This document shows, one piece after another, positions 8,387 to 62,063 of a stretch of DNA of 64,000 nt. Source of the DNA: Candidatus Omnitrophota bacterium. GTDB taxonomy: Bacteria; Omnitrophota; Omnitrophia; Omnitrophales; Aquincolibacteriaceae. Below the pieces are notes generated by a model that was given only the letters and a program-made list of their open reading frames with translations, searched no databases and had not been told where the DNA came from. A program made the translations under genes and the position numbers. The stretch spans positions 22,958 through 86,957 of the forward strand of contig CAISGE010000015.1 of assembly GCA_903884815.1 (NCBI GenBank). Direction: 5' to 3'. Position 1 is the first letter of the stretch, and each line of letters begins with the position of its first letter.

Positions 8387-8462
8387 CACAACGCGCAACG
8401 GTCAACGTTCAACGTCAGGACTCAAATTAAGTACGTTGTGCGTTGCGCGTAGTGCGTTGTGC
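8387..8462. repeat. heptamer-periodic palindromic element (HPE) copy 1, intra-operon nuoC|nuoD
   Basis: Left arm CACAACG CGCAACG GTCAACG TTCAACG, a loop, then right arm CGTTGTG CGTTGCG CGTAGTG CGTTGTGC. Confidence 0.75.
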
Positions 8463-9049
8463 TAGTTTCTTGGTTTTTCCGGCTTTCCAACCAAAGCCCG
8501 TTTTCCTGCAGCGGCGAGTTCTGCCGCTTTTGCCTTCATGTCCTCCGGGATCGCGATCCCCCTGGAGGCTAGCCATGTGATGTCCGCAGCTTCCAGGACG
8601 TCCACATCCTCCTGCTGATAATCTTTGCGCAAAGGGTAGCCTTCGAATCCTTCCCACATGAACAGGCGGCGTGGGTCGGGATGACCTTTATAAATGATGC
8701 CGAAGGTGTCAAAGGCTTCGCGTTCCTGGAGGTTCGCGCTACGGTAAATTGGTACAAGCGACGGGATCTCCGGGTGATTCTTGGGAACGCGGACGCGCAG
8801 CGTGAGGGGCCCACGCTTCAGGGCCATTGAATAAAGGTGATAAACCGATTCCAGAGAGTCCAGATAATCCGCGCCGGTCACCGAGGAAAGATAGTCCAGC
8901 CGGAATTTCGGACTTTGCTTCAGGAAAAGGGCGACGCGCGGCAGATCCTTCGGGTTCTCGAGCAGAAGGGAATTCAGGACGCGGCGGAGTTTCACGTCCG
9001 GCAGTCCCGCATGGAGTTCTTTTTGAACTTCTTCCATAAAGAGAGGCAT
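8462..9049 (-). CDS. nuoC: NADH-quinone oxidoreductase subunit C (30 kDa)
   Basis: FDTFGIIYKGHPDPRRLFMWEGFEGYPLRKDY motif. Start trimmed to internal ATG (MPLFMEEV), 1 nt after the nuoB stop. The track start at 9097 would overlap nuoB by 46 nt. Confidence 0.85.
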   Translation of the reverse strand: MPLFMEEVQKELHAGLPDVKLRRVLNSLLLENPKDLPRVALFLKQSPKFRLDYLSSVTGADYLDSLESVYHLYSMALKRGPLTLRVRVPKNHPEIPSLVPIYRSANLQEREAFDTFGIIYKGHPDPRRLFMWEGFEGYPLRKDYQQEDVDVLEAADITWLASRGIAIPEDMKAKAAELAAAGKRALVGKPEKPRN

Positions 9050-9050
9050 G

Positions 9051-9779
9051 TTAGACGGCTCCCGGAGCGGCGGGCTTGACGGCGGCCGCATGTTCAAGGT
9101 CCGGGGCTTTCAGTTTCTTCCCGATGAGTATCGTGGCACCGTAATGCTCCCGGCGTGGGTCCTTCTTTGCAGGCTGCCACACCTCGGGATTGAATTTCGG
9201 AACGAGCCCATGAGGTCCAAGCTCAGGGATCGGAAATTCCCGCTTGAGGCCCTTTTGATACCATTCTGCTTTCAGAATCTCCTGGGATGCGATCTTTTTT
9301 TGAAGTTCCATGAGTCCGTGAAGCAGCGCCTCGGGCCGCGGGGGACACCCGGGCAAATGAACGTCGACGGGGATGTAGCGGTCGATCCCGCGAAGGACAT
9401 TGTAACCGTCAATAAAAGGACCGCCGGAAATCGCGCAGGCGCCCATGGTAAGAACATATTTTGGTTCGGGCATCTGATTGAAGAGGCGGACGACCTGAGG
9501 AGCCATCTTTTTGGTGACGGTTCCGGAAATGATCATGAGGTCGGCCTGGCGGGGTGAGGCACGGAAGAGCTCGGCGCCGAAGCGGGCAATATCGTAACGG
9601 GCGCAGGCCGCCGCGATCATCTCGAACGCACAGCAGGCCAGCCCGAACTGCATGGGCCATACGGACGATCGGCGTCCCCAATTGTAGAGGAAATCGAGCG
9701 ACGTCCAGATCACGCCTTTTGAGGCGAGTTCGGCGCGCAGCGTTTCATCGACTTCGGTCTTATTTTCTGTGAAGGCCAT
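9051..9779 (-). CDS. nuoB: NADH-quinone oxidoreductase subunit B (20 kDa, Fe-S) with ~70-aa C-terminal extension
   Basis: [12 protein letters not shown]...[10 protein letters not shown]...LPGCPPRPE cysteine motifs. 242 aa versus about 170 typical. Confidence 0.9.
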
Positions 9780-9796
9780 TTTTAGTAAGGAGTCTT

Positions 9797-9858
9797 GAGT
9801 ACGGAGTACGGCGTTTTTTCGTTGCGCGGACCGCCGGTCGCCTTACGCCGTACGAGGT
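9797..9858. repeat. HPE variant (GAGTACG GAGTACG GCG ... CGCCGTACGAG), intra-operon nuoB|nuoA
   Basis: Read directly. Confidence 0.65.
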
Positions 9859-9861
9859 TCA

Positions 9862-10233
9862 TTAATCCCACTCGAGCATTTTCTTTTTCCAGGCGTAGAT
9901 CAGGCCGAACGCGAGGATGGCTATAAAAAGGGCCATTTCCACGAAAGCAAAGAGCCCCAGGCGTTTGAAGGCCACGGCCCAGGGATAGATAAAGATTGTT
10001 TCAATGTCAAAAATGACGAAGATCAGGGCGTAAAGGTAATACTGGACGTGATACTGCATCCAGGGATCACCTTTGGAGGCCAGACCGCACTCATAAGTCG
10101 CCTGTTTGTCGGACGAGGGCTTCTTTGGGGCCATAAGCCAGGCCAATGCCAGAGGCGCAACGGCGAAGATCAGGGCAAAAATGAAAAAAAGGCCCACAAA
10201 TAGGTACTGATAGGAATAGGAGGCACTCGACAT
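9862..10233 (-). CDS. nuoA: NADH-quinone oxidoreductase subunit A
   Basis: 123 aa, 3-TM protein. YECGL...YLYALIFVIFDIE motif. First gene of the operon. Confidence 0.85.
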   Translation of the reverse strand: MSSASYSYQYLFVGLFFIFALIFAVAPLALAWLMAPKKPSSDKQATYECGLASKGDPWMQYHVQYYLYALIFVIFDIETIFIYPWAVAFKRLGLFAFVEMALFIAILAFGLIYAWKKKMLEWD

Positions 10234-10293
10234 AGGGCGGGATTATAGGCAAATCCAGGTCGGGTGTCCAGCAAAGAGGCGGTGCCTGGCCAA

Positions 10294-10404
10294 GCGGGAA
10301 ACGTGGAACCGGGAACGTTGAACGTTTAAAAGGACGGAAAAGGGGACTGTCCCCGTTTTACTTTGTTGATTTGTTTTCCGTTTGTCGTTACCCGTTCCCC
10401 GGTT
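10294..10404. repeat. HPE copy 3 with an embedded terminator-like central hairpin
   Basis: GCGGGAAACG TGGAACC GGGAACG TTGAACG, then AAAAGGGGAC-TGT-CCCCGTTTT, then CCGTTTGTCGTTACCCGTTCCCCGGTT. Confidence 0.7.
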
Positions 10405-10409
10405 TTAAT

Positions 10410-10919
10410 TTAAATTGTGCAGCCTTTCGAGGAGGTTATATCGCCAGGGTTGGCGGGTTCTATCGGTTTGAAGACCATTTGGCATTGCCAATTTATATCA
10501 ACGGAACCATCAAATCCGCCGGAATCATAGCTAACATAATCCCCGGTGTGATCGTTTCTTCCCTCGACCTGGAAGGTAGAGCCAGACACGCTCGCATAGT
10601 ACCGGTACTTCCAATTTTTTGATTTATCAATGCCCGTGAGCCCAAGATCCTGCCAACTCGACTCGTTTTTGTCAAAACCCTCGTCCCAAGGATCCGAACA
10701 AACCTCGAAGACATCTCCCGGGAGTATGTAAGTTCCTTGGAAGTCGTAGTATCTTTCTGCGGCGCGTTTAATGGCGCCGACCATTTGAAGGGCTTCGGCG
10801 GCTTTGGCTTTTTCAGTCTGCATGAGCATGCGGGGTACGATGAGTGACGCCAAAATGGCAATAATGACGACCACGATCAATACTTCAACGAGCGTAAAAC
10901 CTCTCTTCGGATTTTTCAC
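10410..10919 (-). CDS. type IV pilin-like protein (prepilin-type N-terminal cleavage/methylation domain), paralog 1
   Basis: Leader VKNPKRG then FTLVEVLIVVVIIAILASLIVPRM. GTG start with an AGGAG RBS 7 nt upstream. C-terminus ends KGCTI like paralog 6. Confidence 0.75.
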   Translation of the reverse strand: MKNPKRGFTLVEVLIVVVIIAILASLIVPRMLMQTEKAKAAEALQMVGAIKRAAERYYDFQGTYILPGDVFEVCSDPWDEGFDKNESSWQDLGLTGIDKSKNWKYRYYASVSGSTFQVEGRNDHTGDYVSYDSGGFDGSVDINWQCQMVFKPIEPANPGDITSSKGCTI

Positions 10920-11012
10920 AAGATTTCTCCTGAGGAATGACGCGAAACCCCTGTCTGGTGATTCGTCATCCACCTGCTAAAACTGTAGCACGAATTCAGA
11001 AAGGGGGGAGAC

Positions 11013-11091
11013 GGGCGGGAAACGTGGAAGGGTGAACGTTGAACGATTGAAAGAAGCGGGTGATGCCTCCGTTAACCGTTCCCCTTTTTTT
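11013..11091. repeat. HPE copy 4 in the divergent region between pilin paralog 1 and the GT-C-like gene
   Basis: GGGCGGGAAACG TGGAAGG GTGAACG TTGAACG ... CCGTTAACCGTTCCCC T7. Confidence 0.7.
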
Positions 11092-11169
11092 ATAAAAGTA
11101 TTCCCCCCGCGGAAGCTCTTGAGTACAATACCCGCGATTTTCTTTTTCTTAAGGTCACGAAAGGCTCTT

Positions 11170-12726
11170 GTGAAAACCCGACATTTGTTTTTATCTTTAA
11201 TGGCTGCTCTGGTTTACGCCTTCGGTCTCACCCCGACTCTCGACCCGGACATGGGGTGGCATTTGGGGACCGGGGAGTGGATTCTCCAACACGGGTTTCC
11301 GAGGACGGATCCTTTTTCCTTCACCGTGGCCGGCCATTTTTGGACTGCTCACGAATGGCTTTCCGAGGTGATCATGCGTCGCCTGTATGGTTTGGGGGGA
11401 TATCCGGCGATGATGATCTCTTTCGCTCTTGTGGGTGTGCTGGTCTTTGGCCTTGTCTACTGGACCTGTCCCCGGAGGCCGTACATTGCCGGGGCCCTTG
11501 CTTTTTTCGCCCTTCTGACGTCCCGTTTTCTCTGGGGTGCCCGCCCGCAGATCTTCAATGTCCTGATGATGGCCGCCTTTCTTCTGCTGATCCAGGGCGT
11601 GAGAATGCGTCGTTTCCACTGGAAGTTCCTCTACACGCTTCCTTTGCTCGTCATGATCTGGGTAAACCTTCACAGCGGGTACCTGCTTGGGCTTGTGGTG
11701 ATGGTCGCTTTTTTGACGGGAGACCTCTTCCAGATCTTTGTACTCCATTCAGAAGAAGGGACCTTGGGAGAAAAAGGTTTGGCGCATTTTTCGGGAATTT
11801 TAATTTTGTGTCTGGCCGCAGTGGGGATGAACCCTACGGGCTATAAGATCCTTCTCTATCCTTTCGAGACCCTTTCCAGCAAGATCATGCAAACGACCAT
11901 TTTGGAGTGGCAGTCGCCGATCTTTCAGCATTGGAACTACTGGCCTTTTCTCGGCGTGATGTCGCTTGGGGCAGCCGCATTTTTACTTTTTCCGCCCAAA
12001 CGCAATATCGCCAATTTTCTGATCTACGCGGGATCCATGGCTATGGGGCTTTTCGCCCGCAGGCACATCCCTTTTTTCGCGGTCGCTGCGATCCCGATGA
12101 TCGCGCTGGCCGTGAGCGAGGGGTTTCCCGTTCCTGCCTGGGTGAACCGGGGGAGTGATGTTGCTCTGACGCAGACCGCAAGAACGTTCCGCTATCTTTT
12201 GAACGTGTTTTTTGCGATGGTCATTTTGGTGGGTGTCTTTTCCTGGACGGGGTATCGCTTGAATCATAATCCATCCGCGATGGAAAAATCATTTCCGGTC
12301 AAGGCGTTCCAATTTATCAAGGGCAATGGGGCTATTGCCCGGCTCAGGATCTATAATGAGTACGTCTGGGGTGGGTACCTGATCTGGAACGGTTTCCCGG
12401 TTTTCATGGATGGGCGCGCGGACCTTTACGGGGGTAAATTCTTTTTCGATTACCTTTTCGCGCATGATCTGCGGGGAGGGGCGGTAGGCATTACGCGCTA
12501 TCTCGACAGCTATGGTGTCGACGGGATCCTCGTTCCTCCGGGAGGAATTTTGGGGAATGCTTTTCTCTCGAATCCGGAATGGCGGCTTGCCTACCGGGAT
12601 TCCACCGCCGTTTTATTTCTTCGCAAGGTGCCTTTTTCCGTACCTCCCGTGACCCAGAGTCCGGAGCGTTTCTATTCGCCGCTGAAAAGTAATAATCTTG
12701 AGGGGCCGAGGCGCCCTCATTCATGA
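11170..12726 (+). CDS. polytopic membrane protein, GT-C-like (unknown function), paralog A
   Basis: GTG start chosen to align with paralog B (24 aa before the DPDMGWHL loop). Many TM helices. C-terminal soluble domain with NEYVWGGYLIWNGFPVFMDGR. Confidence 0.55.
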   Translation: MKTRHLFLSLMAALVYAFGLTPTLDPDMGWHLGTGEWILQHGFPRTDPFSFTVAGHFWTAHEWLSEVIMRRLYGLGGYPAMMISFALVGVLVFGLVYWTCPRRPYIAGALAFFALLTSRFLWGARPQIFNVLMMAAFLLLIQGVRMRRFHWKFLYTLPLLVMIWVNLHSGYLLGLVVMVAFLTGDLFQIFVLHSEEGTLGEKGLAHFSGILILCLAAVGMNPTGYKILLYPFETLSSKIMQTTILEWQSPIFQHWNYWPFLGVMSLGAAAFLLFPPKRNIANFLIYAGSMAMGLFARRHIPFFAVAAIPMIALAVSEGFPVPAWVNRGSDVALTQTARTFRYLLNVFFAMVILVGVFSWTGYRLNHNPSAMEKSFPVKAFQFIKGNGAIARLRIYNEYVWGGYLIWNGFPVFMDGRADLYGGKFFFDYLFAHDLRGGAVGITRYLDSYGVDGILVPPGGILGNAFLSNPEWRLAYRDSTAVLFLRKVPFSVPPVTQSPERFYSPLKSNNLEGPRRPHS

Positions 12727-12741
12727 GATCCCATTAAATCT

Positions 12742-16995: not shown

Positions 16996-17066
16996 GGCGT
17001 ACGGAGTACGGCACTACGGCTCACGGGATTTTCGCCGTACACCTTACACCGCACTCCTTACGCGGA
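16996..17066. repeat. HPE variant (GGCGTACG GAGTACG GCACTACG GCTCACG ... CGCCGTACACCTTACACCGCACTCCTTACGCG)
   Basis: Read directly after the response-regulator stop. Confidence 0.65.
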
Positions 17067-17164
17067 TAGACAAATCCCGCGCCCTCGGTTATCATGACTT
17101 CGTGTTTTAATTGTGCGCCTTCCGGAGAGTTCCTTGTCCTATCCCAACTTTGCATTTTAAAAGA

Positions 17165-17391: not shown

Positions 17392-18485
17392 TGGATGAGA
17401 AAGATCGTCTTTTATTGACCCATCTTCAGAGCGGGCTCCCGCTAACGCCCCGGCCTTTTGCCACTTGGGCGGCGAAGCTCGGGACAGACAGCGCCGACCT
17501 GCTGGTGCGCATTCAGCGCCTTAAAAAAGAAGGGACTTTGGGGGGGGTGAAGGCGGTTCTCGACGCGCGCATCTTCCATTACCAAAGCGCTTGGGTTGCG
17601 CTACGGTTTGGCACAGAAGATCTCGCGAGCCGCACAGAAGTCCTTTGGCAGCATCCGGGGGTGACCTACGGCTGCGAGAGGGAGCACGAGTTCAACGTCT
17701 GGCTCTTTATTTCGGCTCCCGAGAATCATGATCTTGAGCTTCATGTCCGTTGCCTTGCAAAGATCTCCGGTGCGGAGAAAGTTCTGTTCCTGCCCGTGCG
17801 GCGTGTGTACAAAGGAACGGATCTTCTCAGTTCTCTGGGCCCCGAAACATTTTCTGAGATGGACGAGCGCTTCGAAAAACGTCAGCCGGGTCATGGGGCG
17901 GAGTTGACGACCGAGGACATCGATATGATACGGCGGCTTCAAGAGCCGTTTCCGCTCACGGATGAACCTTATCAAAAGATCGCTGCGGATCTCGGGATCA
18001 CGGAGTTTCAGGCGATTGAGCAGATGAAGTCTCTTGTCGCGAAAAAATGTCTCAAGAGGATTGGAAGTTTCTTGAAACCTGTTGGGCGGATCGGACAGGA
18101 GCATCAAGCTCCTGCCGAAGCCGTGCTGAAGGATTGGCCTTCAGTGAAAGTCCCGGGAGCCGGGAACCTGGTGGTCTGGCAGATCCCCGAGGAAAAACTG
18201 GAGCGAAGCGGGCCCGAGATCGCCGCATTCCGCGAGGTGATTTACGCGGACCGTCGGCCGGCCTATCCGGAATTCCCGTACTCGCTTTATACGACGATCC
18301 GGGCTGAAACACCCGAGGCCCTTGAATTGATCACAAGACGCATGCAGGACCGGATCGGGAAATGGCCGCACCGGGTGATGGTGACGACCCGGGAGCTTAA
18401 GAAAACCGGGATGAAATACTTTCCGAAAGAATTGGACGCGTGGTGGCAGCAAAACCGGCATATAAATGAGACCGCATTTAACTGA
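17392..18485 (+). CDS. tandem AsnC/Lrp-type HTH domain protein (NirDL/AhbAB-like two-repeat architecture)
   Basis: Two repeats with the D..D..LL..LQ..PL...PF...A..LG pattern: DEKDRLLLTHLQSGLPLTPRPFATWAAKLG, then EDIDMIRRLQEPFPLTDEPYQKIAADLG. Confidence 0.55.
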
Positions 18486-18554
18486 GCGCAACGGTCAACG
18501 CTCAACGTGAAACATTTTTTTAATCGTTGTGCGTTGTGCGTCGTGCGTTGAGCC
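18485..18554. repeat. HPE copy between the AsnC-like gene and thiC
   Basis: GAGCGCAACG GTCAACG CTCAACG TG ... CGTTGTG CGTTGTG CGTCGTG CGTTGAGC. Confidence 0.75.
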
Positions 18555-18570
18555 TGCTTTAAGGAGTATC

Positions 18571-19932
18571 ATGGCTTTTCGAGACGAGTGGTTAGCAAAA
18601 CGAGAAAAAGACACGAACCGTTCGCAGATGCATTATGCCCGGCGGGGGATCGTGACGGAAGAGATGGCTTTTGTGGCGGCCGACGAGAAGCTCTCACCGG
18701 AATTTATCCGCTCCGAGGTTGCGGCGGGGAGGCTCGTGATTTGCGCGAACGTGAATCACCGTGATCTCCGGCCCATGGGGATCGGGATTGGCGTTCGCTG
18801 CAAGATCAACGCGAATCTTGGGAATTCGGCGCTGGGTTCGGACATTCAGGCGGAAGTCGAGAAGGTCGGGCTCGCGGTCCGGTTCGGTGCGGATACAGTC
18901 ATGGATCTTTCGACCGGGAAACAGCTGGATGAGACCCGCGAAGCGATCATTCGCGCGACCATTGTGCCGGTGGGGACGGTGCCGATCTATGAAGCGCTGG
19001 AGCGCGTGAACGGAAAGCCGGAGGCTTTGACCCCCGAGATCATGTTCGAAGTAATCGAGCATCAGGCAAAACAGGGTGTGGATTTCATGACAATCCACGC
19101 TGGGGTGCTCCTGGAACATTTGCCGATGATCGAAACCCGGGTGACGGGCGTCGTGAGCCGGGGCGGGGCAATCCTCGCGAGGTGGTGCAAATTCCATCAG
19201 AAGCAAAATTTTCTTTTCAGCCATTACGATCGTTTGCTTGAGATCTGCAAAAAATACGACGTTACGATCAGCCTCGGGGACGGGATGCGGCCGGGTTGCC
19301 TCGCGGACGCGAGCGACAAGGCTCAGTTCGCGGAGCTTGATGCGCTTGGGGTGCTGACGCTAAAGGCCTGGGAGCAGGACGTGCAGGTGATGGTGGAAGG
19401 TCCGGGGCATGTGCCGATGGACCAGATCCCGATGAATATAGAGCGCCAGATCAAGGTCTGCCACGGAGCGCCTTTTTATGTGCTCGGGCCTCTTGTGACT
19501 GATATTGGAGCCGGCTACGATCACATTACTTCCGCGATCGGTGCTGCGATCGCTGCTCAGGCCGGTGCGGCGATGCTGTGTTACGTGACGCCGTGCGAGC
19601 ATCTGTGTTTGCCGAATCTCGATGATGTGAAGCAAGGCGTGATTGCCTACAAGATCGCAGCGCACGCAGCGGATATTGCGCGGCACCGTCCCGGCGCGCG
19701 CGACCGGGATGACGAAATGGCCCGGGCTCGGTTCGCCTTTGATTGGGAAAAACAGTTTGCTTTGACGCTTGATCCGGAGAATGCGAAAAAAAGGCACGAC
19801 GAAGCGCTTCCCGAGGGCGAGGCAAGGAATGCCGAATACTGTTCTATGTGCGGTGAGGGCTTTTGCGCCATGAATCTTTCGCAATGCCTGACCGATGCCG
19901 GGAAAAAGAAACAGGCTCTGAAGAAAAAATAA
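18571..19932 (+). CDS. thiC: phosphomethylpyrimidine synthase
   Basis: [16 protein letters not shown] and C-terminal [11 protein letters not shown] motifs are diagnostic for ThiC. Confidence 0.9.
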
Positions 19933-19971: not shown

Positions 19972-21045
19972 ATGAAAAAACAAAATACGATCCTCAGGAA
20001 AAAAACGCGGGCGGTCAAGGTCGGAAAATTGATCTTGGGGGAGGGTCACCCCATTCGTATCCAGTCCATGACCAAAGTCCACACCAAGGACATTCGCGCG
20101 GTTTTGGAGCAGATCGCGCGGCTGGAGCAAGCGGGTTGCGAGATCGTGCGCTGCGCGTGCCCCGGCGAAGAAGACGTCAAGGCGCTGGGGAAGATCAAGG
20201 CGAAAATCAAGATCCCTCTCGTGGCGGACATTCATTTCAATTACCGGTTCGCCCTGATGGCGATCGATGAAGGTGTGGATAAACTCCGCCTCAATCCCGG
20301 CAATATCGGCGACAAGGATCGCGTGGCCGAAGTCGTGGAAAAAGCAAAGCGTCACCACATCCCGATCCGGATCGGGGTCAATTCCGGCTCGCTTGAAAAA
20401 GATCTGATGGAAAAATACGGGCCCACGCCCGAAGCCTTAGTCGAGAGCGCGCGGCGGCATGTTGCGATCCTTGAGGCGCTGGATTTCCATGACACCGTGA
20501 TCTCGCTCAAGGCGACCGATGTTCCGACCATGATCGAGGCCTATCGTCTCGCGAGCCAAAAATTTGATTATCCTCTTCATCTTGGCGTCACCGAAGCCGG
20601 GACTCTGATGCGGGGCAGTATCTATAACGCGATCGGTGTGGGGACGCTTTTGCAAGAGGGGATCGGTGATACGATCCGCGTGTCACTCACGGCGGATCCG
20701 GTCGAAGAAGTGAGGGTTGCGCGGATGATTCTGGAGTCACTCGACCTTCGCGAAGGCGTGCGCGTCATCTCCTGTCCGACTTGTGGGCGCACCGAGATCG
20801 ATACCGCGAAGCTGGCTCAGGAAGTGGAGGCTCGCGCCATGCGGCTCAAAGGGCCGCTTACGATCGCCGTGATGGGATGCGCGGTCAATGGTCCCGGCGA
20901 AGCCCAGGGTGCGGATTTCGCGATCACCGGCGGCCAGAAAAAGGGCATGATCTACGTCGCCGGGAAACAAGAACGCGTGGTCGACGAAGCGCATCTTGTT
21001 GATGAATTGTTTAAAGAGATCGAGAAAAGACAGGGCAACGGGTAA
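19972..21045 (+). CDS. ispG: 4-hydroxy-3-methylbut-2-enyl diphosphate synthase
   Basis: ISCPTCGRTEID and MGCAVNGPGEA Fe-S motifs. About 357 aa. Confidence 0.9.
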   Translation: MKKQNTILRKKTRAVKVGKLILGEGHPIRIQSMTKVHTKDIRAVLEQIARLEQAGCEIVRCACPGEEDVKALGKIKAKIKIPLVADIHFNYRFALMAIDEGVDKLRLNPGNIGDKDRVAEVVEKAKRHHIPIRIGVNSGSLEKDLMEKYGPTPEALVESARRHVAILEALDFHDTVISLKATDVPTMIEAYRLASQKFDYPLHLGVTEAGTLMRGSIYNAIGVGTLLQEGIGDTIRVSLTADPVEEVRVARMILESLDLREGVRVISCPTCGRTEIDTAKLAQEVEARAMRLKGPLTIAVMGCAVNGPGEAQGADFAITGGQKKGMIYVAGKQERVVDEAHLVDELFKEIEKRQGNG

Positions 21046-21100
21046 CGGGGAATGCAAAACCCGGAATGGCCTTTCGTCCTTCCACGATAGGAATGCTCAA

Positions 21101-22666: not shown

Positions 22667-23474
22667 AATGCTGACGTTCTTTACCGCGCCCATCACCGCT
22701 CTTTTTTCTCCGTCCGTTTACCGGGATGCCGCCAAGAGTTCTCCGGCGCGCGGCGTGCTTTATTCGCTTTATCTCGCAGGCCTTTCGTGTGTTCTCGTCA
22801 TGATGGTGGTTTCGGTGAAGATCATGCCCCAGGCGGACGCGTTCGCGGGTTGGATCAAAACAAGTATGCCGGCTCTTCTCTGGACACCTGCGGGACTCAG
22901 CCTCGAGAATGGTAAGACCACCGCCGAGCTCCAACACCCCAAGTACGGCATGATCGCACTTTTTGATATGACGAAGACCTCGGCGACGGAAGCGGACATG
23001 GGAAAAGCCTATCTCCTCGTGACGTCGCAAAAAGTTTATATCCGGAAGGCACCGGGGCAGGTCGAGGAGCGGGACATTACGGGCGCCGGTATGCGTTCAA
23101 ATCAGTCGCTTCCGCCCAAGGTTCGTATTGACGGAGGGATCGCGGAGAAGCTTTATCAGAATCTTAAGAAGGCGCTGGCGTTCGCGCTGCCGTTCATGAT
23201 CCTGATTTTGTCGCTCGTGTTTTTCCTCGTCATGAATCTCTTTTACTCCTTGGCGGGACTTCTTTTCAACAAGATGCGCAAGGACAAGCTTGGCTACGGG
23301 GCGATCTTTAATCTCACCTGCTTCGCGATGACGGCATCGTTCACGCTGACCTGGCTCAAAGTCCTGATCCCTGTGCCGGCTTTCCCCGGGACATTTGGCT
23401 TGAATGTTCTTGTGACGCTCCTCTATATGTACTTCGCCTTCAAGATCACGGATTCAAAGCCCGAAGTCATTTAA
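22659..23474 (+). CDS. hypothetical membrane protein
   Basis: 271 aa with several TM segments and no recognised motif. 8-nt overlap with greA. Confidence 0.5.
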   Translation: MNKMLTFFTAPITALFSPSVYRDAAKSSPARGVLYSLYLAGLSCVLVMMVVSVKIMPQADAFAGWIKTSMPALLWTPAGLSLENGKTTAELQHPKYGMIALFDMTKTSATEADMGKAYLLVTSQKVYIRKAPGQVEERDITGAGMRSNQSLPPKVRIDGGIAEKLYQNLKKALAFALPFMILILSLVFFLVMNLFYSLAGLLFNKMRKDKLGYGAIFNLTCFAMTASFTLTWLKVLIPVPAFPGTFGLNVLVTLLYMYFAFKITDSKPEVI

Positions 23475-23483
23475 ACAAAATAA

Positions 23484-23525
23484 AAGGGGACAGGCAGTTA
23501 TTTGATGCCTGTCCTCTTTTATTAT
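23484..23525 (+). terminator. rho-independent terminator (GGGGACAGGCA hairpin family)
   Basis: AAAAGGGGACAGGCAGTTATTTGATGCCTGTCCTCTTTTATT, 9 nt after the stop. Confidence 0.7.
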
Positions 23526-23725
23526 TTCAACAGACTACCTACCCCGTACTACCTACCGTTTTTCAAATCGTGCAACCTGTCGCAGATTTGTCTCCATCTA
23601 TAACAGGGGGTATGGGCTTAAATGTGTTCCAACATTGCCAAAGGTCATCCCCTGAGTAGTATTGCAGATAAGGATAAGGCGAGGGGTCTGTGTCGATTTT
23701 TGCGGTAACTTTGAACGTTTCGTCG

Positions 23726-25120: not shown

Positions 25121-25196
25121 CGTACAACGAGAAACGGGCAACGTGCAACGTTAAAGCCGAAGCTTTTTCGTTGTCCGTTGAACATCGTACGTTGAC
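25121..25196. repeat. HPE copy between the ADH stop and the EamA start
   Basis: CGTACAACG AGAAACG GGCAACG TGCAACG ... CGTTGTC CGTTGAA CATCGTA CGTTGAC. Confidence 0.75.
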
Positions 25197-28055: not shown

Positions 28056-28068
28056 GGTGACGGTCACT

Positions 28069-28114
28069 AAAAGGGGGACAGGCAGTCACTTAATGCCTGT
28101 CCCCTTTTTTTTAT
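28069..28114 (+). terminator. rho-independent terminator (GGGGACAGGCA hairpin family)
   Basis: AAAAGGGGGACAGGCAGTCACTTAATGCCTGTCCCC followed by T10. Confidence 0.8.
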
Positions 28115-31228: not shown

Positions 31229-31237
31229 CCCGCAACA

Positions 31238-31262
31238 ATTCCGGGAATTCAATTCCCGGAAT
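31238..31262. repeat. perfect palindrome ATTCCGGGAATT-C-AATTCCCGGAAT (copy 1 of 3), between convergent era and pfk
   Basis: Read directly. The same palindrome occurs at 51956 and 61508. Confidence 0.8.
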
Positions 31263-31274
31263 GAGTCGGGTGCT

Positions 31275-34813: not shown

Positions 34814-34890
34814 CGCGGGCAAGGGGGAACGGGGAACGCCAAACGTTTTAGATATTGTTCACAGTTTGCCGTTGCCCTTCGTTTTTTATT
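34814..34890. repeat. HPE copy between convergent genes
   Basis: GCGGGCAAGG GGGAACG GGGAACG CCAAACG ... GTTTGCCGTTGCCCTTCG T6. Confidence 0.65.
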
Positions 34891-36592: not shown

Positions 36593-36761
36593 GTCTCTCT
36601 CCCTTTTCAAAAGAAGTCTCTCGGCCCGCTCAAATCATCGCCGTGGTCCCACTAGAACTGTAACACATATCCGCGGAATTGGGGGCGGCGACTGTCCTTA
36701 AATCAAGACGGGGAATCGGCGCTTTAATGTTCCAATACCCACGATTTGAAGCACGGCTTGA

Positions 36762-36989
36762 TCACCTCGCCAGGCGCTGTCTCTCTTTCAGGAGCATTTC
36801 CTTCATCTCCTGAGGCAATTTTTCAAAATCCGGAGGAAGGGGCGGCAGGCCTTTCGCGATCTCCTCGCGCGTTCTCGGGTCCCGGTGCTTCGCCGTGAAA
36901 TGCGGCATAAGCGCGAAGAGCAGCGCGCAAACGCAGACACCCAGGATCACCCATTTTTTTACGGAAACTCCCTCAAAGTTCTCAGTCAT
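36762..36989 (-). CDS. small single-TM membrane protein (75 aa) between pilin paralogs
   Basis: MTENFEGVSVKKWVILGVCVCALLFALMPHF. A degenerate copy lies after the next pilin. Confidence 0.4.
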   Translation of the reverse strand: MTENFEGVSVKKWVILGVCVCALLFALMPHFTAKHRDPRTREEIAKGLPPLPPDFEKLPQEMKEMLLKERQRLAR

Positions 36990-37005
36990 GACCGTCGTCT
37001 CCTGT

Positions 37006-37518: not shown

Positions 37519-37689
37519 GTCTTTCTCCCTTTTCAAAAAAGGCTTTCCGCCTTCTCAAATCATCGTCGTGCTCCCATTAAAACTGTAACACATATCCGCG
37601 GAATTGGGGGCGTCGGCTCTCCTTAAATTAAGACGGAGGATCGGCGCTTTGATGCCCCCATTCCTATCAGCCGAAGCATTGCTTGATCG

Positions 37690-37800
37690 GTTTGCTACGT
37701 GGTGAACTGCGGCATAGGCGCGAAGACCAGCGTGCAAACGCAGACACCCAGGATTACCCATTTTTTCACGAAAACTCCCTCAAAGTTCTCAGGCTTGACC
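37690..37800 (-). pseudogene. decayed duplicate of the 75-aa small membrane protein gene (start ATG->AAG, premature stop)
   Basis: About 90% nucleotide identity with 36880..37000. Translates VKPENFEGVFVKKWVILGVCVCTLVFAPMPQFTT then stop. Confidence 0.45.
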
Positions 37801-37812
37801 GCCGTCTCCTGT

Positions 37813-38334: not shown

Positions 38335-38617
38335 AGCACTTCTCCTTTCAAAAGAAGACCAGACTGCTCTTCCGATCATCATCGTCAACCACCCGCAATA
38401 ACTATAGCACATATCCGGAGAATGGGGGGGGAGGCGGGTAACGGAATCAAGGGGGTTATTCGGCTCCCCCGGGCCTCGATCCTTCCAGTACCGGACACTC
38501 TCCGGAGTCCCTGGCACTGGAACTTCTTCGGAAGACGGGGTATTGCGAAGGGGGTTATTCCGCATTTCCCGTTTCCCGTTCACCCTTCGTTTCGATTGTG
38601 CTACAATCCCGCTCCTT

Positions 38618-41454: not shown

Positions 41455-41526
41455 TGGGGAAGGGGAAACAGCCAACGTGGAACGCCGGGCGGGAAACAAA
41501 TTATTTATCGTCACCCGTTCTCCGAT
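41455..41526. repeat. HPE copy between the TPR gene and pilin paralog 6 (convergent)
   Basis: GGGGAAGG GGAAACA GCCAACG TGGAACG CCGGGCG GGAAAC ... CGTCACCCGTTCTCCG. Confidence 0.6.
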
Positions 41527-41533
41527 ATCAGTT

Positions 41534-42007
41534 TTAAATCGTGCAGCCTTTTGTGGACATGTTAGGATCGCTGTCGGGCTCAACGGCTTTGAATACTTCA
41601 AAGCAAATCCAGATCCCGGAGCCGTTGGCATCCACGTAAGCTAGCCAATTGGTAGCGGTCTCGTCGTACGCTTGGACTGAGAGGTAGCTATGAAAACCAT
41701 AGTACACATATTTCCACGCTTTTGATTTCTCAATACCCGTAAGCCCCAGATCCGCCCAATCGCCCAGAGGAGTCCCCCAAGGGTCCGACTGAATATAAGT
41801 TCCGCTGGGAGCGTCATAACTTCCGTGAAAGTCGTAGTATCTTTCCGCGGCGCGCTTGATGGCGCCGATCATCTGGATAGCCTCGGCGGCTTTTGCTTTT
41901 TCGGTCTGCATGAGCATGCGCGGGACGATAAGCGAGGCGAGGATGGCGATAATAACGACCACGATCAGAACCTCAACGAGGGTGAAGCCCTTTTTTTGAT
42001 TTTTCAC
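41534..42007 (-). CDS. type IV pilin-like protein, paralog 6
   Basis: VKNQKKG then FTLVEVLIVVVIIAILASLIVPRM. GTG start after an AGGAG RBS. Ends KGCTI. Confidence 0.75.
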   Translation of the reverse strand: MKNQKKGFTLVEVLIVVVIIAILASLIVPRMLMQTEKAKAAEAIQMIGAIKRAAERYYDFHGSYDAPSGTYIQSDPWGTPLGDWADLGLTGIEKSKAWKYVYYGFHSYLSVQAYDETATNWLAYVDANGSGIWICFEVFKAVEPDSDPNMSTKGCTI

Positions 42008-42064
42008 AGTTCCTCTCCTTATTCGGGATGATACAGTAACACCTGATATTGCTTCGTCATTCAC

Positions 42065-46198: not shown

Positions 46199-46308
46199 AG
46201 GCGATTCAGGAGCAACCCCTGGGGAACGGGCTCCGGAGGAGGTTCCGATGTCGGATTCGCCCGTCGATGCCGGAATGGCCGTTCGGTAGAATTTAATTAC
46301 AAGGGACA

Positions 46309-46354
46309 AAAAAAGGGGGACAGGCATTAAGTGACTGCTTGTCCCCTTTTTTTT
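46309..46354. terminator. bidirectional rho-independent terminator (GGGGACAGGCA family; inverted copy of the 28069 hairpin)
   Basis: A7 GGGGGACAGGCATTAAGTGACTGCTTGTCCCC T8. Its loop is the reverse complement of the 28069 loop. Abuts the efp stop. Confidence 0.75.
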
Positions 46355-46925
46355 AAGCGCGGCCGTCAACTTCTCCGGTTTCAGTGTTGACGCGCAGCAC
46401 TGTTCCGATGTCGGCATAAAGAGGTGCGTTGACTTCCATTCCGGTCTCGAGAGTTGCCTTTTTGGTCGAGCGGCCTGAGATCGAAGCTCCTTTGAGCGAA
46501 GGATCGGTTTCCGTGATGGCAAGCTCCACATAGACTGGAAGTTCCAGGGAAACGACGGTCCCGTTAAGTTTCAGCGCCAGCATTTCCTGATTTTCTTTCA
46601 GATAGAGCTTTTGTTCCCCGAGTTTCTCCGCCGTTAGCATGAACTCCTCGTAGGCGACGTTGTCCATGAAGTGATATTCATTCCCGGTGATGTATTGGAA
46701 TACGGCCGGGACTTTCTCCACGTCGGGCACATTGAATTTTTCGCTCGTCTTGAAGGTTTTGTCGAGCACTGCGCCATTCAGCAGATTCCGGACCTTGGCC
46801 TTGCACATGGTGGAGGCTCCCCGCGCCGAGGGTGTCGCGAAGGTGACATCGATGACGTAAAAAGGCTGTCCGTCGACTTCAATGTAAAGTTTCTTTTCCA
46901 GTTCGTTGGCCGAGATCTGCGCCAT
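46353..46925 (-). CDS. efp: elongation factor P
   Basis: About 190 aa, three beta-domains. KAKVRNLLNGAVLDKTF block. Start trimmed to MAQISANEL. Confidence 0.9.
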   Translation of the reverse strand: MAQISANELEKKLYIEVDGQPFYVIDVTFATPSARGASTMCKAKVRNLLNGAVLDKTFKTSEKFNVPDVEKVPAVFQYITGNEYHFMDNVAYEEFMLTAEKLGEQKLYLKENQEMLALKLNGTVVSLELPVYVELAITETDPSLKGASISGRSTKKATLETGMEVNAPLYADIGTVLRVNTETGEVDGRA

Positions 46926-47348
46926 AACCTTCCTTTCCGGATAGGGGTGCCATGGTTTGAATGAAGTGTGCGGCATTCTATACGATAACTTCCCTCCGTG
47001 AAAGTCCTTCTCTTGTGCGTTAACGACCGCTGAAAGCTAGAAATCTCGTCGGATCTTTTGCGGGATCGCACGCGTAAAGCAATGTTGGGCGCCAGTTTTC
47101 GCGCGCAAAAGGCGAAAGATTTTTTTAGTGATTTTCGGGCGCGCTCATAATTTGTATAGGGAGAAAAGTTTCTTCAGCTTTTTAGTATCTCAGAGGGGCA
47201 TAAAAGTTCATGGATGGGTACATGTGTTCAAAGAAGTTGACGGAAAATATAAATGACAAAGATTGCTATATTTTTTCTGGCCTAAGGCTCTTGTAAATGC
47301 TTGATAAGAATGTTAGGCGTTTTAGTGGACGGCAGAACGAAATTAATA

Positions 47349-51955: not shown

Positions 51956-51982
51956 AATTCCGGGAATTGAATTCCCGGAATT
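51956..51982. repeat. perfect palindrome AATTCCGGGAATTGAATTCCCGGAATT (copy 2 of 3)
   Basis: Read directly. Flanked by CCAAT/ATTGG. Confidence 0.8.
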
Positions 51983-56446: not shown

Positions 56447-56447
56447 A

Positions 56448-57016: not shown

Positions 57017-57030
57017 ATCCGGATCTTGCG

Positions 57031-57067
57031 TTTGACACCCGGCGGCGAGCATGGCCCCGGGTGTCAA
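57031..57067 (+). terminator. hairpin TTGACACCCGG-N14-CCGGGTGTCAA after the Spy-like gene
   Basis: Perfect 11-bp inverted repeat. Related to the ACACCGGGTGT palindromes. Confidence 0.5.
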
Positions 57068-57137
57068 CCCGTGTTTTAGGATGCTTTCTGAAGGGCTTTC
57101 CCGGTGAATTCCAAACAAATCTTTTTTGTCATGCCTC

Positions 57138-58829: not shown

Positions 58830-58842
58830 GCGCGTTCGTAAC

Positions 58843-58872
58843 GCCCGCTTCTCATTGTGGGCGTTTTTTGTT
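58843..58872 (+). terminator. rho-independent terminator AACGCCCGC-loop-GTGGGCGTT-T6
   Basis: Read directly, 14 nt after the stop. Confidence 0.7.
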
Positions 58873-58886
58873 ATGATACGCCCCCT

Positions 58887-59669
58887 ATGCAGACCTTATC
58901 CCTCAGACAGAACAATATTTTGCGTGGTGTCATCGAAACGCATATCGAAACGACCCAACCCGTGGGGTCCCGTTCGATCGCCGAGAAATATGCCACCTCC
59001 TTTTCTCCCGCGACCATCCGGAACGAAATGGGAGCCCTGGAAGAAATGGGTTATCTTTCACATCCCCACACTTCGTCCGGCCGCCTTCCCACAGACTGCG
59101 GCTATCGTTATTATCTGGATCATACGCCTTTCGAAGATCATTCCGAGGAGTCCCTCAGCCGTCTCAAAAAAGAGCTCGTCCCCGCGGCAAGCCCTCAAAT
59201 GTTGGAGGAGTTCCTCGACCATGTTTCTCTGCTTTTGTCCTCTTTATCCCAGGAAGTTGGATTGACCCTGATGCCCGGCGCGGAAGCGAAGACGTCTTCA
59301 AAGTCGGGCAGGACCCGGCTTGCTTTACAGGGACTCCCTTATATCCTTGAAAAGCCTGAATTCCAGGATGTTCGGAAAGTCCGGAATTTGCTGGGCGTGT
59401 TCGAGGAAAAAGTGACGCTTACCCAATGGGTGCTGACGCACGTTGATTCCGAGCATGTTTCGGTCTCGGTAGGCCACGAGCACTCGCAAGAGGCTTTGGA
59501 AGATTGCTCGATCGTGGCGGCGCGTTATGACGCCGGGGAAAACCGCCGCGGCGTGATCGCGATCCTGGGGCCCAAGCGCATGGCGTACCGGCAGATCATC
59601 CCGCTGGTTTCGCGCATGGCAGTTGTGGTAGGCCATATGTTTGAACGAATGGAGCCCGAAATCTTATGA
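58887..59669 (+). CDS. hrcA: heat-inducible transcription repressor HrcA (short form)
   Basis: N-terminal wHTH LRGVIETHIETTQPVGSRSI. Followed by grpE and dnaJ. Confidence 0.75.
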   Translation: MQTLSLRQNNILRGVIETHIETTQPVGSRSIAEKYATSFSPATIRNEMGALEEMGYLSHPHTSSGRLPTDCGYRYYLDHTPFEDHSEESLSRLKKELVPAASPQMLEEFLDHVSLLLSSLSQEVGLTLMPGAEAKTSSKSGRTRLALQGLPYILEKPEFQDVRKVRNLLGVFEEKVTLTQWVLTHVDSEHVSVSVGHEHSQEALEDCSIVAARYDAGENRRGVIAILGPKRMAYRQIIPLVSRMAVVVGHMFERMEPEIL

Positions 59670-60325
59670 GTCATCACCACAAGAAAAATCATCACGAAAA
59701 ACAGGACGAAGGGAAAAAGATGGCGGAGGACGGCAAGGTCGAGGATGCCGCGGCTTCGCAAAATGGCGGAAAAGTAGAAGTTCCGGCGCAGGAATACGAG
59801 GCGCTTAAGAAGAAGGTCGAAGAGCTTGAAGGCTTGCGAGAAAAATTCTTACTTGCGGCGGCGGATTTCGAGAACGCGAAGAAACGGAACGCGCGCGACA
59901 AAGAAGATTTTATCAAGTTCAGCCAGGAACGGATCCTGAGGGAACTGATCCCCGTTCTGGATAATTTTGAAAGGGCGGTCGGTCACGCGACGACGGCTTC
60001 CGCGAGCGCGACCTCGTATGAGGCGCTGCTGCAGAATTTGAAGACGCTGCTTTCGGGGGTAGAGAGAGTGCAGAAGCAGTTTACCGATGCTCTCAAGTTG
60101 CACGGTCTCAAAAGGGTCGAGACTGCCGGGCAGATGTTCAACCCGCATTTCCACGAAGTGGTTGCCCATGTGCCTGAGGAAGGACCGGAAGATCAGATCG
60201 TCGATGAACTTGAACCGGGCTACACCCTTCATGACCGTCTCCTCCGGGCCGCCAAGGTCCGCGTTCGTGTATCGCCCCAGCCTCAAACGCCCGCTTCCGA
60301 GGAGAAGCAGGAAGAAATCACTTAA
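59666..60325 (+). CDS. grpE: nucleotide exchange factor GrpE
   Basis: FENAKKRNARDKED...ILRELIPVLDNFERA...HEVVAHVP GrpE blocks. Confidence 0.85.
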   Translation: MSHHHKKNHHEKQDEGKKMAEDGKVEDAAASQNGGKVEVPAQEYEALKKKVEELEGLREKFLLAAADFENAKKRNARDKEDFIKFSQERILRELIPVLDNFERAVGHATTASASATSYEALLQNLKTLLSGVERVQKQFTDALKLHGLKRVETAGQMFNPHFHEVVAHVPEEGPEDQIVDELEPGYTLHDRLLRAAKVRVRVSPQPQTPASEEKQEEIT

Positions 60326-60328
60326 AAC

Positions 60329-60396
60329 GCGCTCAACGTGCAACGGGCAACGCACAAAAAAAGAATGTTGCGCGCAGATCGTTGAGCGTTGCGCGA
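60329..60396. repeat. HPE copy between grpE and dnaJ (where dnaK usually sits)
   Basis: GCGCTCAACG TGCAACG GGCAACG CAC ... GTTGCGCGCAGATCGTTGAGCGTTGCGCG. Confidence 0.75.
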
Positions 60397-60409
60397 TTCC
60401 GAAGGAATT

Positions 60410-61501
60410 ATGGCAAAACGCGATTACTATGAAGTGTTGGGTGTGACCAAGGCGTCGGACAGCGAGACGATCAAGAAAAGCTACCGCAAGCTTGCCTTGC
60501 AGCATCATCCTGACCGCAATCCCGGAAATCACGCCGCGGAAGAGAAATTTAAGGAAGCCGCGGAAGCCTACGCCGTCCTCAGCGATCCGGACAAGCGAGC
60601 CCGCTACGACCAGTACGGGCACAGCCTGGGAGGTCAGGGCTTCTCCGGTTTCGAAGGTTTCGAGGATGCCTTTGGCGGCTTCAGCGATATCTTCGGCGAT
60701 CTTTTTGAGGGTTTTTTCGGAGGCGATGGCGGAAGACGCCGCGGTCGCGGGCAGCGGGGTGCCGATCTGGAATACACGGTGGAGCTCGAGCTCGCCGAAG
60801 TTCTCACGGGAAAGACCTTTGATCTGGAAATTCCGCGCAAGGAAACCTGCATTGAATGCCAGGGCACGGGCGCGGAAAAAGGTTCTCGGAAAACGACATG
60901 CTCCGATTGCGGGGGGCGCGGCGAGGTTCGGGTTTCCCAAGGGTTTTTCACGATCCGCAGGACCTGCCCGAGATGCCACGGGGAGGGAGAGTCGATCGAG
61001 AAACCCTGCCAGACTTGTCGCGGAGAAGGTCGCGTCCGGAAAACACGCAAGCTTCAGGTGAAGATCCCAGCCGGGATCGAGCACGGTTCCAAACTTCGTG
61101 TGACGGGAGAGGGCGAGGCGGGACAGGGCGGCGGATCACGCGGCGATCTTTACATCCCGGTGTTGATCAAAAAGAATAAGACCTTCGAGCGGCAGGGGCA
61201 TGACATTTATTGTGAGGTGCTGATCCCGTACACGGTGGCGGTGTTGGGCGGCGAAGTGGAAGTTCCGACACTGACCGGGAAAACGCGGCTTGAGGTTTCA
61301 AGTGGAACTCCGGCCGGCAAGGTGCTTAAGATCAAGGGCGAGGGTGTTCCGGCCTTCGGCATGGAGGAGCGCCGCGGGGACCAATATGTGAAAGTGGATA
61401 TTGAGATCCCGACCAAACCCAGCAAGATCGAGCGCGAGCTCCTGGAGAAATTGGCAGCCGAGCGCAAAGAAAAGATCAGCGGCAAAAAAAGTTTCTTTTA
61501 A
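60410..61501 (+). CDS. dnaJ: chaperone DnaJ
   Basis: J-domain with HPD ([12 protein letters not shown]). G/F region. Four CxxCxGxG repeats. Confidence 0.9.
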
Positions 61502-61507
61502 CCCGAT

Positions 61508-61537
61508 CAATTCCGGGAATTGAATTCCCGGAATTAG
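61508..61537. repeat. perfect palindrome CAATTCCGGGAATTGAATTCCCGGAATTAG (copy 3 of 3) after the dnaJ stop
   Basis: Read directly. Confidence 0.8.
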
Positions 61538-61558
61538 TAGGGTGGGGGAGGATGTGCT

Positions 61559-61990
61559 ATGGAATATTTTGATTATAAATATCGGGTGATTTACGCGGAT
61601 ACGGACCAGATGGGGATCACCTATTACGCGAACTACCTCAAGTGGTTCGAGGCGGGTCGCAATGAATATTTCCGGACGCTGGGATTTCCCTACACGGAAT
61701 GCGAGAAAAAGGGGATCTACCTGCCGGTCGCGGAAGCGCATGTGAATTATCTTTCGCCGTCCACCTACGACGATGACATTATCGTGAGGACCAGTGTCGC
61801 GGAGATCGGGAACAGCACGCTGCGCTTTGAATACCAGGTGATGAACGCGAAGACCCATGTCGTGGTCGCGACGGGATCGACGCTCCATGTGTTCGTGAAC
61901 AAGGCGATGAAACCCTGCCGCGTTCCCGAGGAGATCAAGGCGGTCGTGAAAGAGCACGTGCTTCTCAAAAAGAGATGCCGGTGTAAATGA
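61559..61990 (+). CDS. acyl-CoA thioesterase, YbgC/4HBT family
   Basis: YRVIYADTDQMGITYYANYLKWFEAGRNEYF hotdog-fold thioesterase motif. Confidence 0.8.
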   Translation: MEYFDYKYRVIYADTDQMGITYYANYLKWFEAGRNEYFRTLGFPYTECEKKGIYLPVAEAHVNYLSPSTYDDDIIVRTSVAEIGNSTLRFEYQVMNAKTHVVVATGSTLHVFVNKAMKPCRVPEEIKAVVKEHVLLKKRCRCK

Positions 61991-62063
61991 GACGCGTTCA
62001 ACGCGCAACGCACAACGTGAAAGCTTGAAAAAGCCGTTGAGCGTTGACCGTTGCGCGTTGTGC
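61991..62063. repeat. HPE copy between the thioesterase and gpsA
   Basis: GACGCGTTCAACG CGCAACG CACAACG TG ... CGTTGAG CGTTGAC CGTTGCG CGTTGTGC. Confidence 0.75.

Follow-up and report, generated by a model that had tools for sequence, protein, structure and literature searches.

Palindromic repeats with arms of tandem heptamers in the gene spacers of an Omnitrophota genome and its relatives

We analyzed a 64,000-nucleotide (nt) stretch of a Candidatus Omnitrophota bacterium (contig CAISGE010000015.1, positions 22,958 to 86,957; hereafter the window, with coordinates counted from its first letter), part of a 149-kb metagenome scaffold, and found that its spacers carry hairpin-forming palindromes whose arms are built of tandem 7-nt units. 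We assign a probability of about 0.5 to the reading that these elements form a superfamily of small non-autonomous palindromic repeats, akin to repetitive extragenic palindromes (REP/REPIN), miniature inverted-repeat transposable elements (MITEs) and Rickettsia palindromic elements (RPEs), with arms that are arrays of 2–5 heptamers. The elements have been copied to new places, and close strains differ by their gain, loss or replacement; arm length changes by full heptamers, and compensatory change keeps the arms paired. Copies survive where insertion is harmless, namely in the stretch that separates a stop codon from the ribosome-binding site of the following gene and, now and then, in-frame at a tolerant point of a gene. 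Heptamer arrays as such are already known; the regular inverted two-arm heptad design with changing words appears to be the new part.

An original prediction, made by reading the window alone, had proposed a family of hairpins with tandem heptamer arms at 12 sites. We read all 12 coordinates, and 11 are genuine hairpins of this kind; the remaining site, a supposed degenerate copy at 47021–47110, has no period-7 signal and a folding z-score of about 0, and is not a copy. The elements share a common plan, in which a left arm of 2–4 units of 7 nt is followed by an A/T-rich centre of 12–54 nt and a right arm of complementary units. With 11 copies in 64 kb, all of them in spacers, the density is about one per 6 kb. 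Three types of word occur in the window: NNCAACG (8387, 18485, 25121, 60329 and 61991), GGRAACG (10294, 11013, 34814 and 41455) and a GAGTACG-like type (9797 and 16996). The copies are listed in Table 1 together with two partial elements.

The heptamer arms are far above chance. Arrays of at least three tandem N4ACG units were observed six times against 0.30 expected from Markov shuffles, and tandem CGTN4 units four times against 0.22; no arrays of the N4ACG style were present in the window at periods of 5, 6, 8, 9 or 10, and period-7 arrays were about 20 times commoner than chance. The word CAACGNNCAACGNNCAACG, with at most one mismatch, gave 13 matches (0.02 expected), and the two-arm pattern gave nine (0.00 expected). 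A sequence-blind test led to the same period: 18 self-similar segments at lag 7 were found against 2.4 in shuffles. Besides lag 7, lags 6, 9 and 12 alone were raised, a result of the coding periodicity; all enriched periods except 7 are multiples of 3. As caveats, the copy at 16996 has alternating units of 7 and 8 nt, and four copies are degenerate. The strong copies fold with -27 to -37 kcal/mol and z-scores of -2 to -6 relative to shuffled controls; the degenerate, weakly folding copies are 9797, 10294, 11013 and 41455 (z +0.1 to -1.8).

Table 1 Heptad hairpins and partial elements in the window
Coordinates	Strand	Element and setting	Folding or remark
8387..8462	.	CAACG-type heptad hairpin, 4+4 units, 19-nt loop; from nuoC stop codon to 31 nt before nuoD ATG	-36.5 kcal/mol, z -5.2
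9797..9858	.	GAGTACG/GCG-type heptad hairpin, weak; between nuoA and nuoB	z -0.2/-1.2
10294..10404	.	GGGGAACG-type heptad hairpin; small GGGGACAGTCCCC+TTTT hairpin in loop; 3' of pseudopilin gene 10410-10973	
11013..11091	.	GGGGAACG-type heptad hairpin; divergent spacer, 5' of pseudopilin gene	T7 run on + strand
16996..17066	.	GTACG-type hairpin, 7- and 8-nt units alternating; begins 8 nt past response-regulator stop codon	-37.2 kcal/mol, z -6.2, minus strand
18485..18554	.	CAACG-type heptad hairpin, 3+4 units; ahbAB stop codon to just before thiC ribosome-binding site	
21033..21054	+	Half element, left arm alone (GGGCAACG GGTAACG GGGAATG), 3' end of ispG	Absent from earlier list
25121..25196	.	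CAACG-type heptad hairpin, 4+3 units; inner AAAGC-CGAA-GCTTT stem-loop	z -4.5, minus strand
34814..34890	.	GGGAACG-type heptad hairpin filling convergent spacer (DUF819 gene / unknown gene)	Followed by T6 run, + strand
38557..38588	+	Right-arm remnant, GGRAACG type (CGTTTCC CGTTCAC), upstream of a pseudopilin gene	Absent from earlier list
41455..41526	.	Degenerate GGRAACG-type hairpin; convergent spacer, 3' of pseudopilin gene 41534-42064	z about -1
60329..60396	.	CAACG-type heptad hairpin between grpE and dnaJ	
61991..62063	.	CAACG-type heptad hairpin, 3+4 units; thioesterase stop codon towards gpsA	-34.9 kcal/mol, z -3.5

Comparison of close strains revealed turnover of these elements. The close strains include L119, which is about 93% identical to the window in nucleotide sequence, and L146, which comes from the same sample as L119. 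One arm of the nuoC|nuoD element is exactly 14 nt, or two units, shorter in L119 than in the window. The nuoA|nuoB element at 9797–9858 is 98.6% identical in L119, is reduced to a right-arm remnant, TGTACTCCGTAC, in L122, and is absent in L121. A block of 803 nt at 10285–11087, comprising an element, a pseudopilin gene and a paralogous element, is replaced in L119 (930–1025) by 96 unrelated nt, and the break points of the replacement are the outer edges of the two elements. The grpE|dnaJ element is shared by L146, where a G-C pair of the innermost block has become A-T through compensatory change, and the element at 61991–62063 is 98.7% identical in that locus. The dnaJ|thioesterase slot (61509) holds a GGGGAACG heptad hairpin in L146 and an unrelated CCGGGAATT palindrome in the window. 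Across similar or orthologous pairs, substitutions per site amounted to 4.4% in the cores, 23% in the loops and 38.5% at the 2-nt spacer positions, a contrast that may be inflated by mis-registered alignment of the repeats. The window also contains a third palindromic repeat family, AATTCCGGGAATTSAATTCCCGGAATT, at 31237–31263, 51956–51982 and 61509–61535.

Orthologous spacers in relatives show that the heptad-hairpin design is conserved and the word is not. Between ahbAB and thiC, four loci (L125, L127, L130 and L131) carry NNNGTAC/GTACNNN hairpins, two (L124 and L135) carry GTAGGTA/CTACCTA hairpins and two (L132 and L142) carry CAGAGAC/GTCTCTG hairpins; L129 has a plain small hairpin, and the spacer is empty in seven loci. 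Between nuoC and nuoD, the CAACG elements of the window and L122 are homologous, L121 and L123 have GGRAACG elements, and L120 has no element. The grpE|dnaJ slot of L147 is occupied by a GTCTC-type heptad hairpin. Moreover, several word families coexist within single genomes. The original prediction had interpreted the ACG ending as a fixed core of a modular recognition code; given the other words at orthologous spacers and the several families per genome, the ending is a property of the families in this particular genome and not a code.

Next, we examined the distribution of the elements by searching a strict two-arm CAACG pattern, for which the chance expectation is much less than one match, in a collection of species-representative genomes. 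Among the matches listed, more than 117 loci were found, mostly in phyla of the Planctomycetota–Verrucomicrobiota–Chlamydiota (PVC) superphylum. The carriers listed were mostly Verrucomicrobiota (Chthoniobacterales, Udaeobacter, Opitutaceae, Limisphaerales and metagenome-assembled genomes (MAGs) labelled Akkermansia muciniphila), accompanied by Omnitrophota, with many matches per MAG, by Lentisphaerota/Victivallales, Kiritimatiellia and Planctomycetota, and by a few MAGs of Gemmatimonadota, Vicinamibacterales and Nitrospirota. The design is very abundant in Omnitrophota and recurs in Verrucomicrobiota and related phyla. The same pattern had no match in 2.9 million viral contigs, and a phage vector was discarded accordingly. 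Copies of a second word family, GGGGAACG-GGTAACG, are scattered over the window and over more than 12 loci of Omnitrophota MAGs. Within the window, arms resembling GGGGAACGGGTAACG are found at 10386, 11070 and 41509, with remnants at 21033, 38570 and 56232; the element at 11013–11091 is a paralogue of 10294–10404 (74% identity, with the same outer ends), and the outer arm GGAGAACGGGTGACG of the element at 41455–41526 is paralogous to 10386–10400.

One insertion lies within a protein gene. In Omnitrophica RIFOXYB12_FULL_50_7 (L107, 2566–2635), a complete 69-nt CAACG hairpin is located in-frame in the gene of a secreted protein. The insert is missing in three homologues (P0241, P0244 and P0251), whose proteins run straight through, and two others (P0242 and P0246) have a different insert at the same point, whose peptide, YRVRSTEYG, agrees with a translation of GAGTACG units. 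In this respect the elements resemble RPEs, palindromic elements of 100–150 bp that insert in-frame into protein genes and are translated. To our knowledge, RPEs are confined to Rickettsia and are not built of heptads, and we know of no sequence relationship between them and the elements described here. Taken together, the dispersed near-identical arms, the gain and replacement between strains and the in-frame insertion make a mobile miniature element the best fit among the three suggestions of the original prediction, the other two being a heptad-reading protein and an RNA processing signal. In this reading the arms would grow and shrink by replication slippage, which would keep the 7-nt unit length while the word drifts or is homogenised and would explain a conserved design with free sequence.

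These observations also bear on a purely mutational origin, in which polymerase slippage in place would generate an array, and template switching within the strand would then copy it to the other arm, with neither mobility nor function. Heptameric simple repeats are over-represented in many bacteria, for which a polymerase-footprint or slippage hypothesis has been proposed (PMC4692102), and the 14-nt unit indel between strains, the greater likeness of units within one element than between elements, and the fastest change at the spacer positions all agree with such an origin. However, growth in place does not explain the presence of the same 15-nt arm at many unrelated loci and in many genomes, nor the complete 69-nt hairpin within a gene whose homologues are empty there, nor the swap of palindrome families in the same slot between near-identical strains. 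Since identical arms are dispersed, we consider pure in-place slippage very unlikely.

Several observations weigh against the reading as small mobile palindromic repeats. The copies in the window are mostly dissimilar to one another, unlike the products of a recent burst of MITE activity. No target-site duplication was visible at the junctions examined, and no clean pair of an empty and a filled site was found among the loci compared. The one near-identical pair within a genome (MAG ADurb.Bin006; L052 1–145 and L085 6638–6782) is 99% identical over at least 145 nt and ends sharply at the right edge of a CAACG hairpin; in L085, a further copy of the shared left flank follows about 180 nt downstream. 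The pair shares at least 50 nt beyond the element and is therefore not a clean element-only copy; it may represent one end of a longer repeat or of a mobile element. No transposase, integrase or REP-associated tyrosine transposase (RAYT) was present among the approximately 50 window proteins examined, and clustering of 373 open reading frames (ORFs) near 138 elements gave no recurrent protein family within 1.5 kb. No linkage to a RAYT or other transposase emerged from these sets, and the co-occurring REP-associated transposase or binding protein that the original prediction had suggested looking for appeared in neither. Furthermore, the apparent conservation of a 5-nt core in part reflects the way in which the elements were found and aligned. 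Finally, the nuoC|nuoD spacer holds some heptad hairpin in five of six lineages, with differing words, which could mean that a hairpin is selected there rather than passively tolerated.

The last point leads to the main rival, which is compatible with the repeat-element reading: the elements would be RNA hairpins selected by the host at cistron ends, where they would stabilise the mRNA upstream, define processing sites or dampen read-through. A ribosome that terminates 0–8 nt upstream would melt the outer units and thereby couple the hairpin to translation, so that the fold is selected and the word is free. We regard this as unlikely. The positions of the elements fit such selection: those in the window begin 0–8 nt past a stop codon and end ahead of the next ribosome-binding site, thus making up nearly the whole spacer, and the median distance to the preceding stop codon is 6 nt, that to the following start codon about 4 nt. 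The occupancy of nuoC|nuoD despite differing words and the compensatory change at grpE|dnaJ also agree with it. A further point in its favour is that the best two promoter-like sites in the window lie directly after elements, namely the nuoA promoter-like site at 10270–10242, directly downstream of 10294–10404, and the site at 17067–17095, directly after 16996–17066. By contrast, 79 elements between same-strand genes showed no asymmetry of the kind expected from selection on the sense RNA, which we therefore set aside: the sense strand was the more stable in 42 cases and the antisense strand in 36 (p = 0.40), and G.U pairs numbered 179 and 167, respectively. In the CAACG family, the two variable positions of the seven in each unit pair across the arms near chance (47% vs 39% and 30% vs 28%); the CAACG stems are 5-bp clamps at a 7-nt phase and not stability-optimised hairpins. 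In addition, many orthologous spacers are empty and the elements turn over between strains, one copy is in-frame within a gene, and copies in divergent spacers occur at the background rate, with tandem, divergent and convergent spacers occupied roughly in proportion to their availability.

Whether the hairpins act as terminators depends on what follows them. Like intrinsic terminators, they are GC-rich hairpins just past genes, and a short T-tract is found at 34814, 41455 and 11013 as well as at many Verrucomicrobia-type copies. In the latter, short T-tracts are enriched at both ends (47–60% vs 15% at random), the outer units often being GAAAACG/CGTTTTC, a form that gives rise to these tracts. 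Both this enrichment and the T-runs at the two convergent window sites (34814 and 41455) speak for a role in RNA; against it, ends of Omnitrophota-type copies have no enrichment of T-tracts. A sense-direction T-run is missing at 8 of the 11 window copies, which lie inside operons, T-runs being found only at the two convergent sites and at 11013, and a terminator scan did not call the window elements. The genome has a separate canonical family of bidirectional terminators consisting of an A-run, GGGGACAGGCA-loop-TGCCTGTCCCC and a T-run (at about 23474–23526, 28066–28114 and 46305–46357). As the original prediction had held, the elements are not simply terminators, and ordinary intrinsic terminators were ruled out for the lineage of the window. 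A miniature of the canonical terminator, GGGGACAGTCCCC+TTTT, is located within the loop of element 10294–10404. Transcribed copies would probably be passive 3' stem-loops that act as mRNA stabilisers or weak attenuators. Termination would be confined to copies with a T-run behind them, and effects on the mRNA, if any, are probably secondary.

Another explanation holds that the arrays are iterons, that is, binding sites for a protein whose subunits would each recognise a single unit of 7 bp or 7 nt, and which might serve nucleoid organisation, DNA-uptake marking or the control of hairpin melting. On double-stranded DNA, such a protein would resemble the omega repressor of pSM19035, which binds heptads in direct or inverted order; on single strands, cold-shock-domain proteins or HutP would be the analogues. 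Several features fit an iteron array: in the CAACG family, the phase is strictly 7 nt, the 5-nt core is invariant and the 2-nt spacers are free; the arms are symmetric on both strands without bias towards an RNA strand; and the words CAACG and GGGGAACG are conserved throughout a phylum or superphylum. The binding of approximately one heptamer per cold-shock protein (PMC4679880) fits as well. Nevertheless, unrelated words coexist in one genome and are swapped at the same site, so that many cognate proteins would be needed, and no candidate binder was linked to the elements, either among the window proteins or among the neighbours of the 138 elements. The partition into core and spacer did not reach significance in arrays detected without presupposing a sequence (p = 0.9); a general rule of a fixed core plus two free positions was rejected, since it holds in the CAACG family only, with an ascertainment caveat. 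We therefore consider iterons very unlikely, and the many coexisting words also make the single heptad-reading protein of the original prediction unlikely.

We compared the elements with described systems. REP/REPIN sequences (PMC3116915) are likewise short, imperfect, hairpin-forming and very abundant repeats found in spacers by stop codons and inside operons, with several sequence families per genome and presence that varies between strains. However, a REP is a single palindrome of 20–40 nt with a GTAG/GTGG-type head and near-identical copies, whereas the elements are arrays of 7-nt units whose copies are far less alike. A RAYT gene is typical of REP/REPIN and was seen neither in the window nor beside the 138 elements, and two of the heptad word families span whole phyla, unlike REP/REPIN. 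REP/REPIN sequences are nonetheless the nearest analogue in functional terms, although the elements have neither the single palindrome nor the head. MITEs share with the elements the polymorphism of presence and absence and the dispersal of related copies, while two MITE hallmarks, a target-site duplication and a related autonomous insertion sequence, were seen neither at the junctions examined nor in the window, respectively.

The closest precedent for the 7-nt unit is provided by intergenic heptameric repeats of other bacteria. Arrays of GGGAATC in Xanthomonas and of GGGGAYT in Nostoc include some inverted pairs (PMC4692102); TAACTGA occurs as direct repeats in Beggiatoaceae and cyanobacteria, and is inverted in 1 of 170 sets of Beggiatoaceae (PMC4679880); and Geobacter metallireducens has elements of 4x GGACCGG and 5x MTYCTGA between and within genes (PMC2700814). 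These repeats resemble our elements in their 7-nt unit and in the variation of length and sequence at the same gene pair among close relatives, and they are reported there to be of unknown function, with occasional inverted pairs. They are mainly direct, on one strand and of one word, whereas in the elements the inverted two-arm hairpin is the rule, words are many and 2-nt positions are variable; the carriers also differ, being PVC-group bacteria in our case. In the literature searched, whose coverage is incomplete, we came across no account of the two-arm heptad design, nor of repeats of this kind from Omnitrophota or Verrucomicrobia. The statement that no family with this architecture had been described thus holds for Rfam and for the literature searched, and has to be qualified by the known intergenic heptamer arrays, with their occasional inverted pairs in Xanthomonas, Nostoc and Geobacter.

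Known RNA families and integrons were also considered. Rfam gave no match in the window at gathering thresholds, and a known RNA family was excluded on this basis; a permissive scan returned only sub-threshold matches to CsrC (26.5 vs 61 bits, E 2e-5; 10120–10372, + strand) and mir-249. The CsrC match is due to units rich in GGA and falls on the non-coding strand, and is thus probably an artefact. Integron attC sites were tested against the consensus R''/R' core sites, RYYYAAC ... GTTRRRY, and one window gene is flanked by two elements. The Verrucomicrobia units GTTGRRC fit GTTRRRY, whereas the window units GTTGCGC, GTTGTGC, GTTGACC and GGGGAAC do not, and the sites in the elements are tandem at a 7-nt period instead of forming R and L boxes with spacers as in attC. 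Nor do the surroundings match an integron cassette array: the flanks are housekeeping genes (nuo, grpE/dnaJ, thiC and gpsA) on both strands, and the window contains no intI. We rejected attC on these grounds.

A bolder version of the repeat-element reading is that the elements represent a mobile or self-renewing class whose ends or arms are built or recognised in 7-nt steps by a candidate enzyme common to the PVC superphylum. It may be a structure-specific enzyme of the HUH or tyrosine kind, for instance, or an activity that adds repeats from a template. The persistence of period 7 and of the inverted design under changing words would then be accounted for, as would the precise landing of elements between a stop codon and a ribosome-binding site or in-frame in genes; we consider this version unlikely. 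If a dedicated enzyme or binder does stand behind the elements, it would constitute a new mobile-element or nucleic-acid-recognition system. With many natural variants at the same gene slots, the questions of why the unit is 7 nt and what copies the elements are now testable. The elements also have practical effects, as they break assemblies, fuse ORFs in gene calls and insert peptides into proteins, and they could possibly serve as strain markers.

At many loci (e.g., L014, L020, L024 and L118) the left arms contain no stop codons, and mechanical ORF calling consequently fuses neighbours or extends starts, yielding peptides such as NAQRSTLNAQRST and LSVERWTL. Reading through the left arms is a likely source of annotation errors in these phyla. 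In many Verrucomicrobia-type copies, ATGAAR...AAACG is located just outside the arm (e.g., L002 4844, L004 2226, L054 1017 and L084 504), and the resulting short ORFs (e.g., MKQTSNVQRPTSNTEYRI) run into the array and terminate within the loop or the opposite arm. ATG-initiated short ORFs running into an arm were modestly enriched in Verrucomicrobia-type copies (41% of sides vs 29% with shuffled flanks) and not enriched in Omnitrophota-type copies (29% vs 30%), and we set aside the idea of leader peptides on this account.

The gene context was established with a codon log-odds model, one window gene being set by hand from an NCBIfam match; the closest named relatives of NuoC and GrpE are from Omnitrophota MAGs. 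The genes flanking the elements comprise nuoA-D, a response regulator, ahbAB, thiC, an alcohol dehydrogenase, a DMT transporter, a DUF819 gene, a TPR protein, grpE, dnaJ, a thioesterase, gpsA and several pseudopilin genes. Every kind of slot is used, as had been noted: positions inside operons (nuoC|nuoD, nuoA|nuoB and grpE|dnaJ), between convergent genes (34814 and 41455) and between divergent genes (11013). The element at 25121–25196 lies between the alcohol dehydrogenase stop codon (25197) and the start of the DMT transporter gene. No tRNAs were found in the window. thiC has no TPP riboswitch match in Rfam, and its upstream spacer consists of the heptad hairpin followed by AAGGAG and the ATG (18555–18572). 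The window contains five pseudopilin genes, several of which are accompanied by GGRAACG-type elements or remnants. Two long spacers upstream of adjacent pseudopilin genes, at 36611–37005 and 37537–37812, are near-duplicates of each other, which suggests a tandem duplication of a gene together with its leader.

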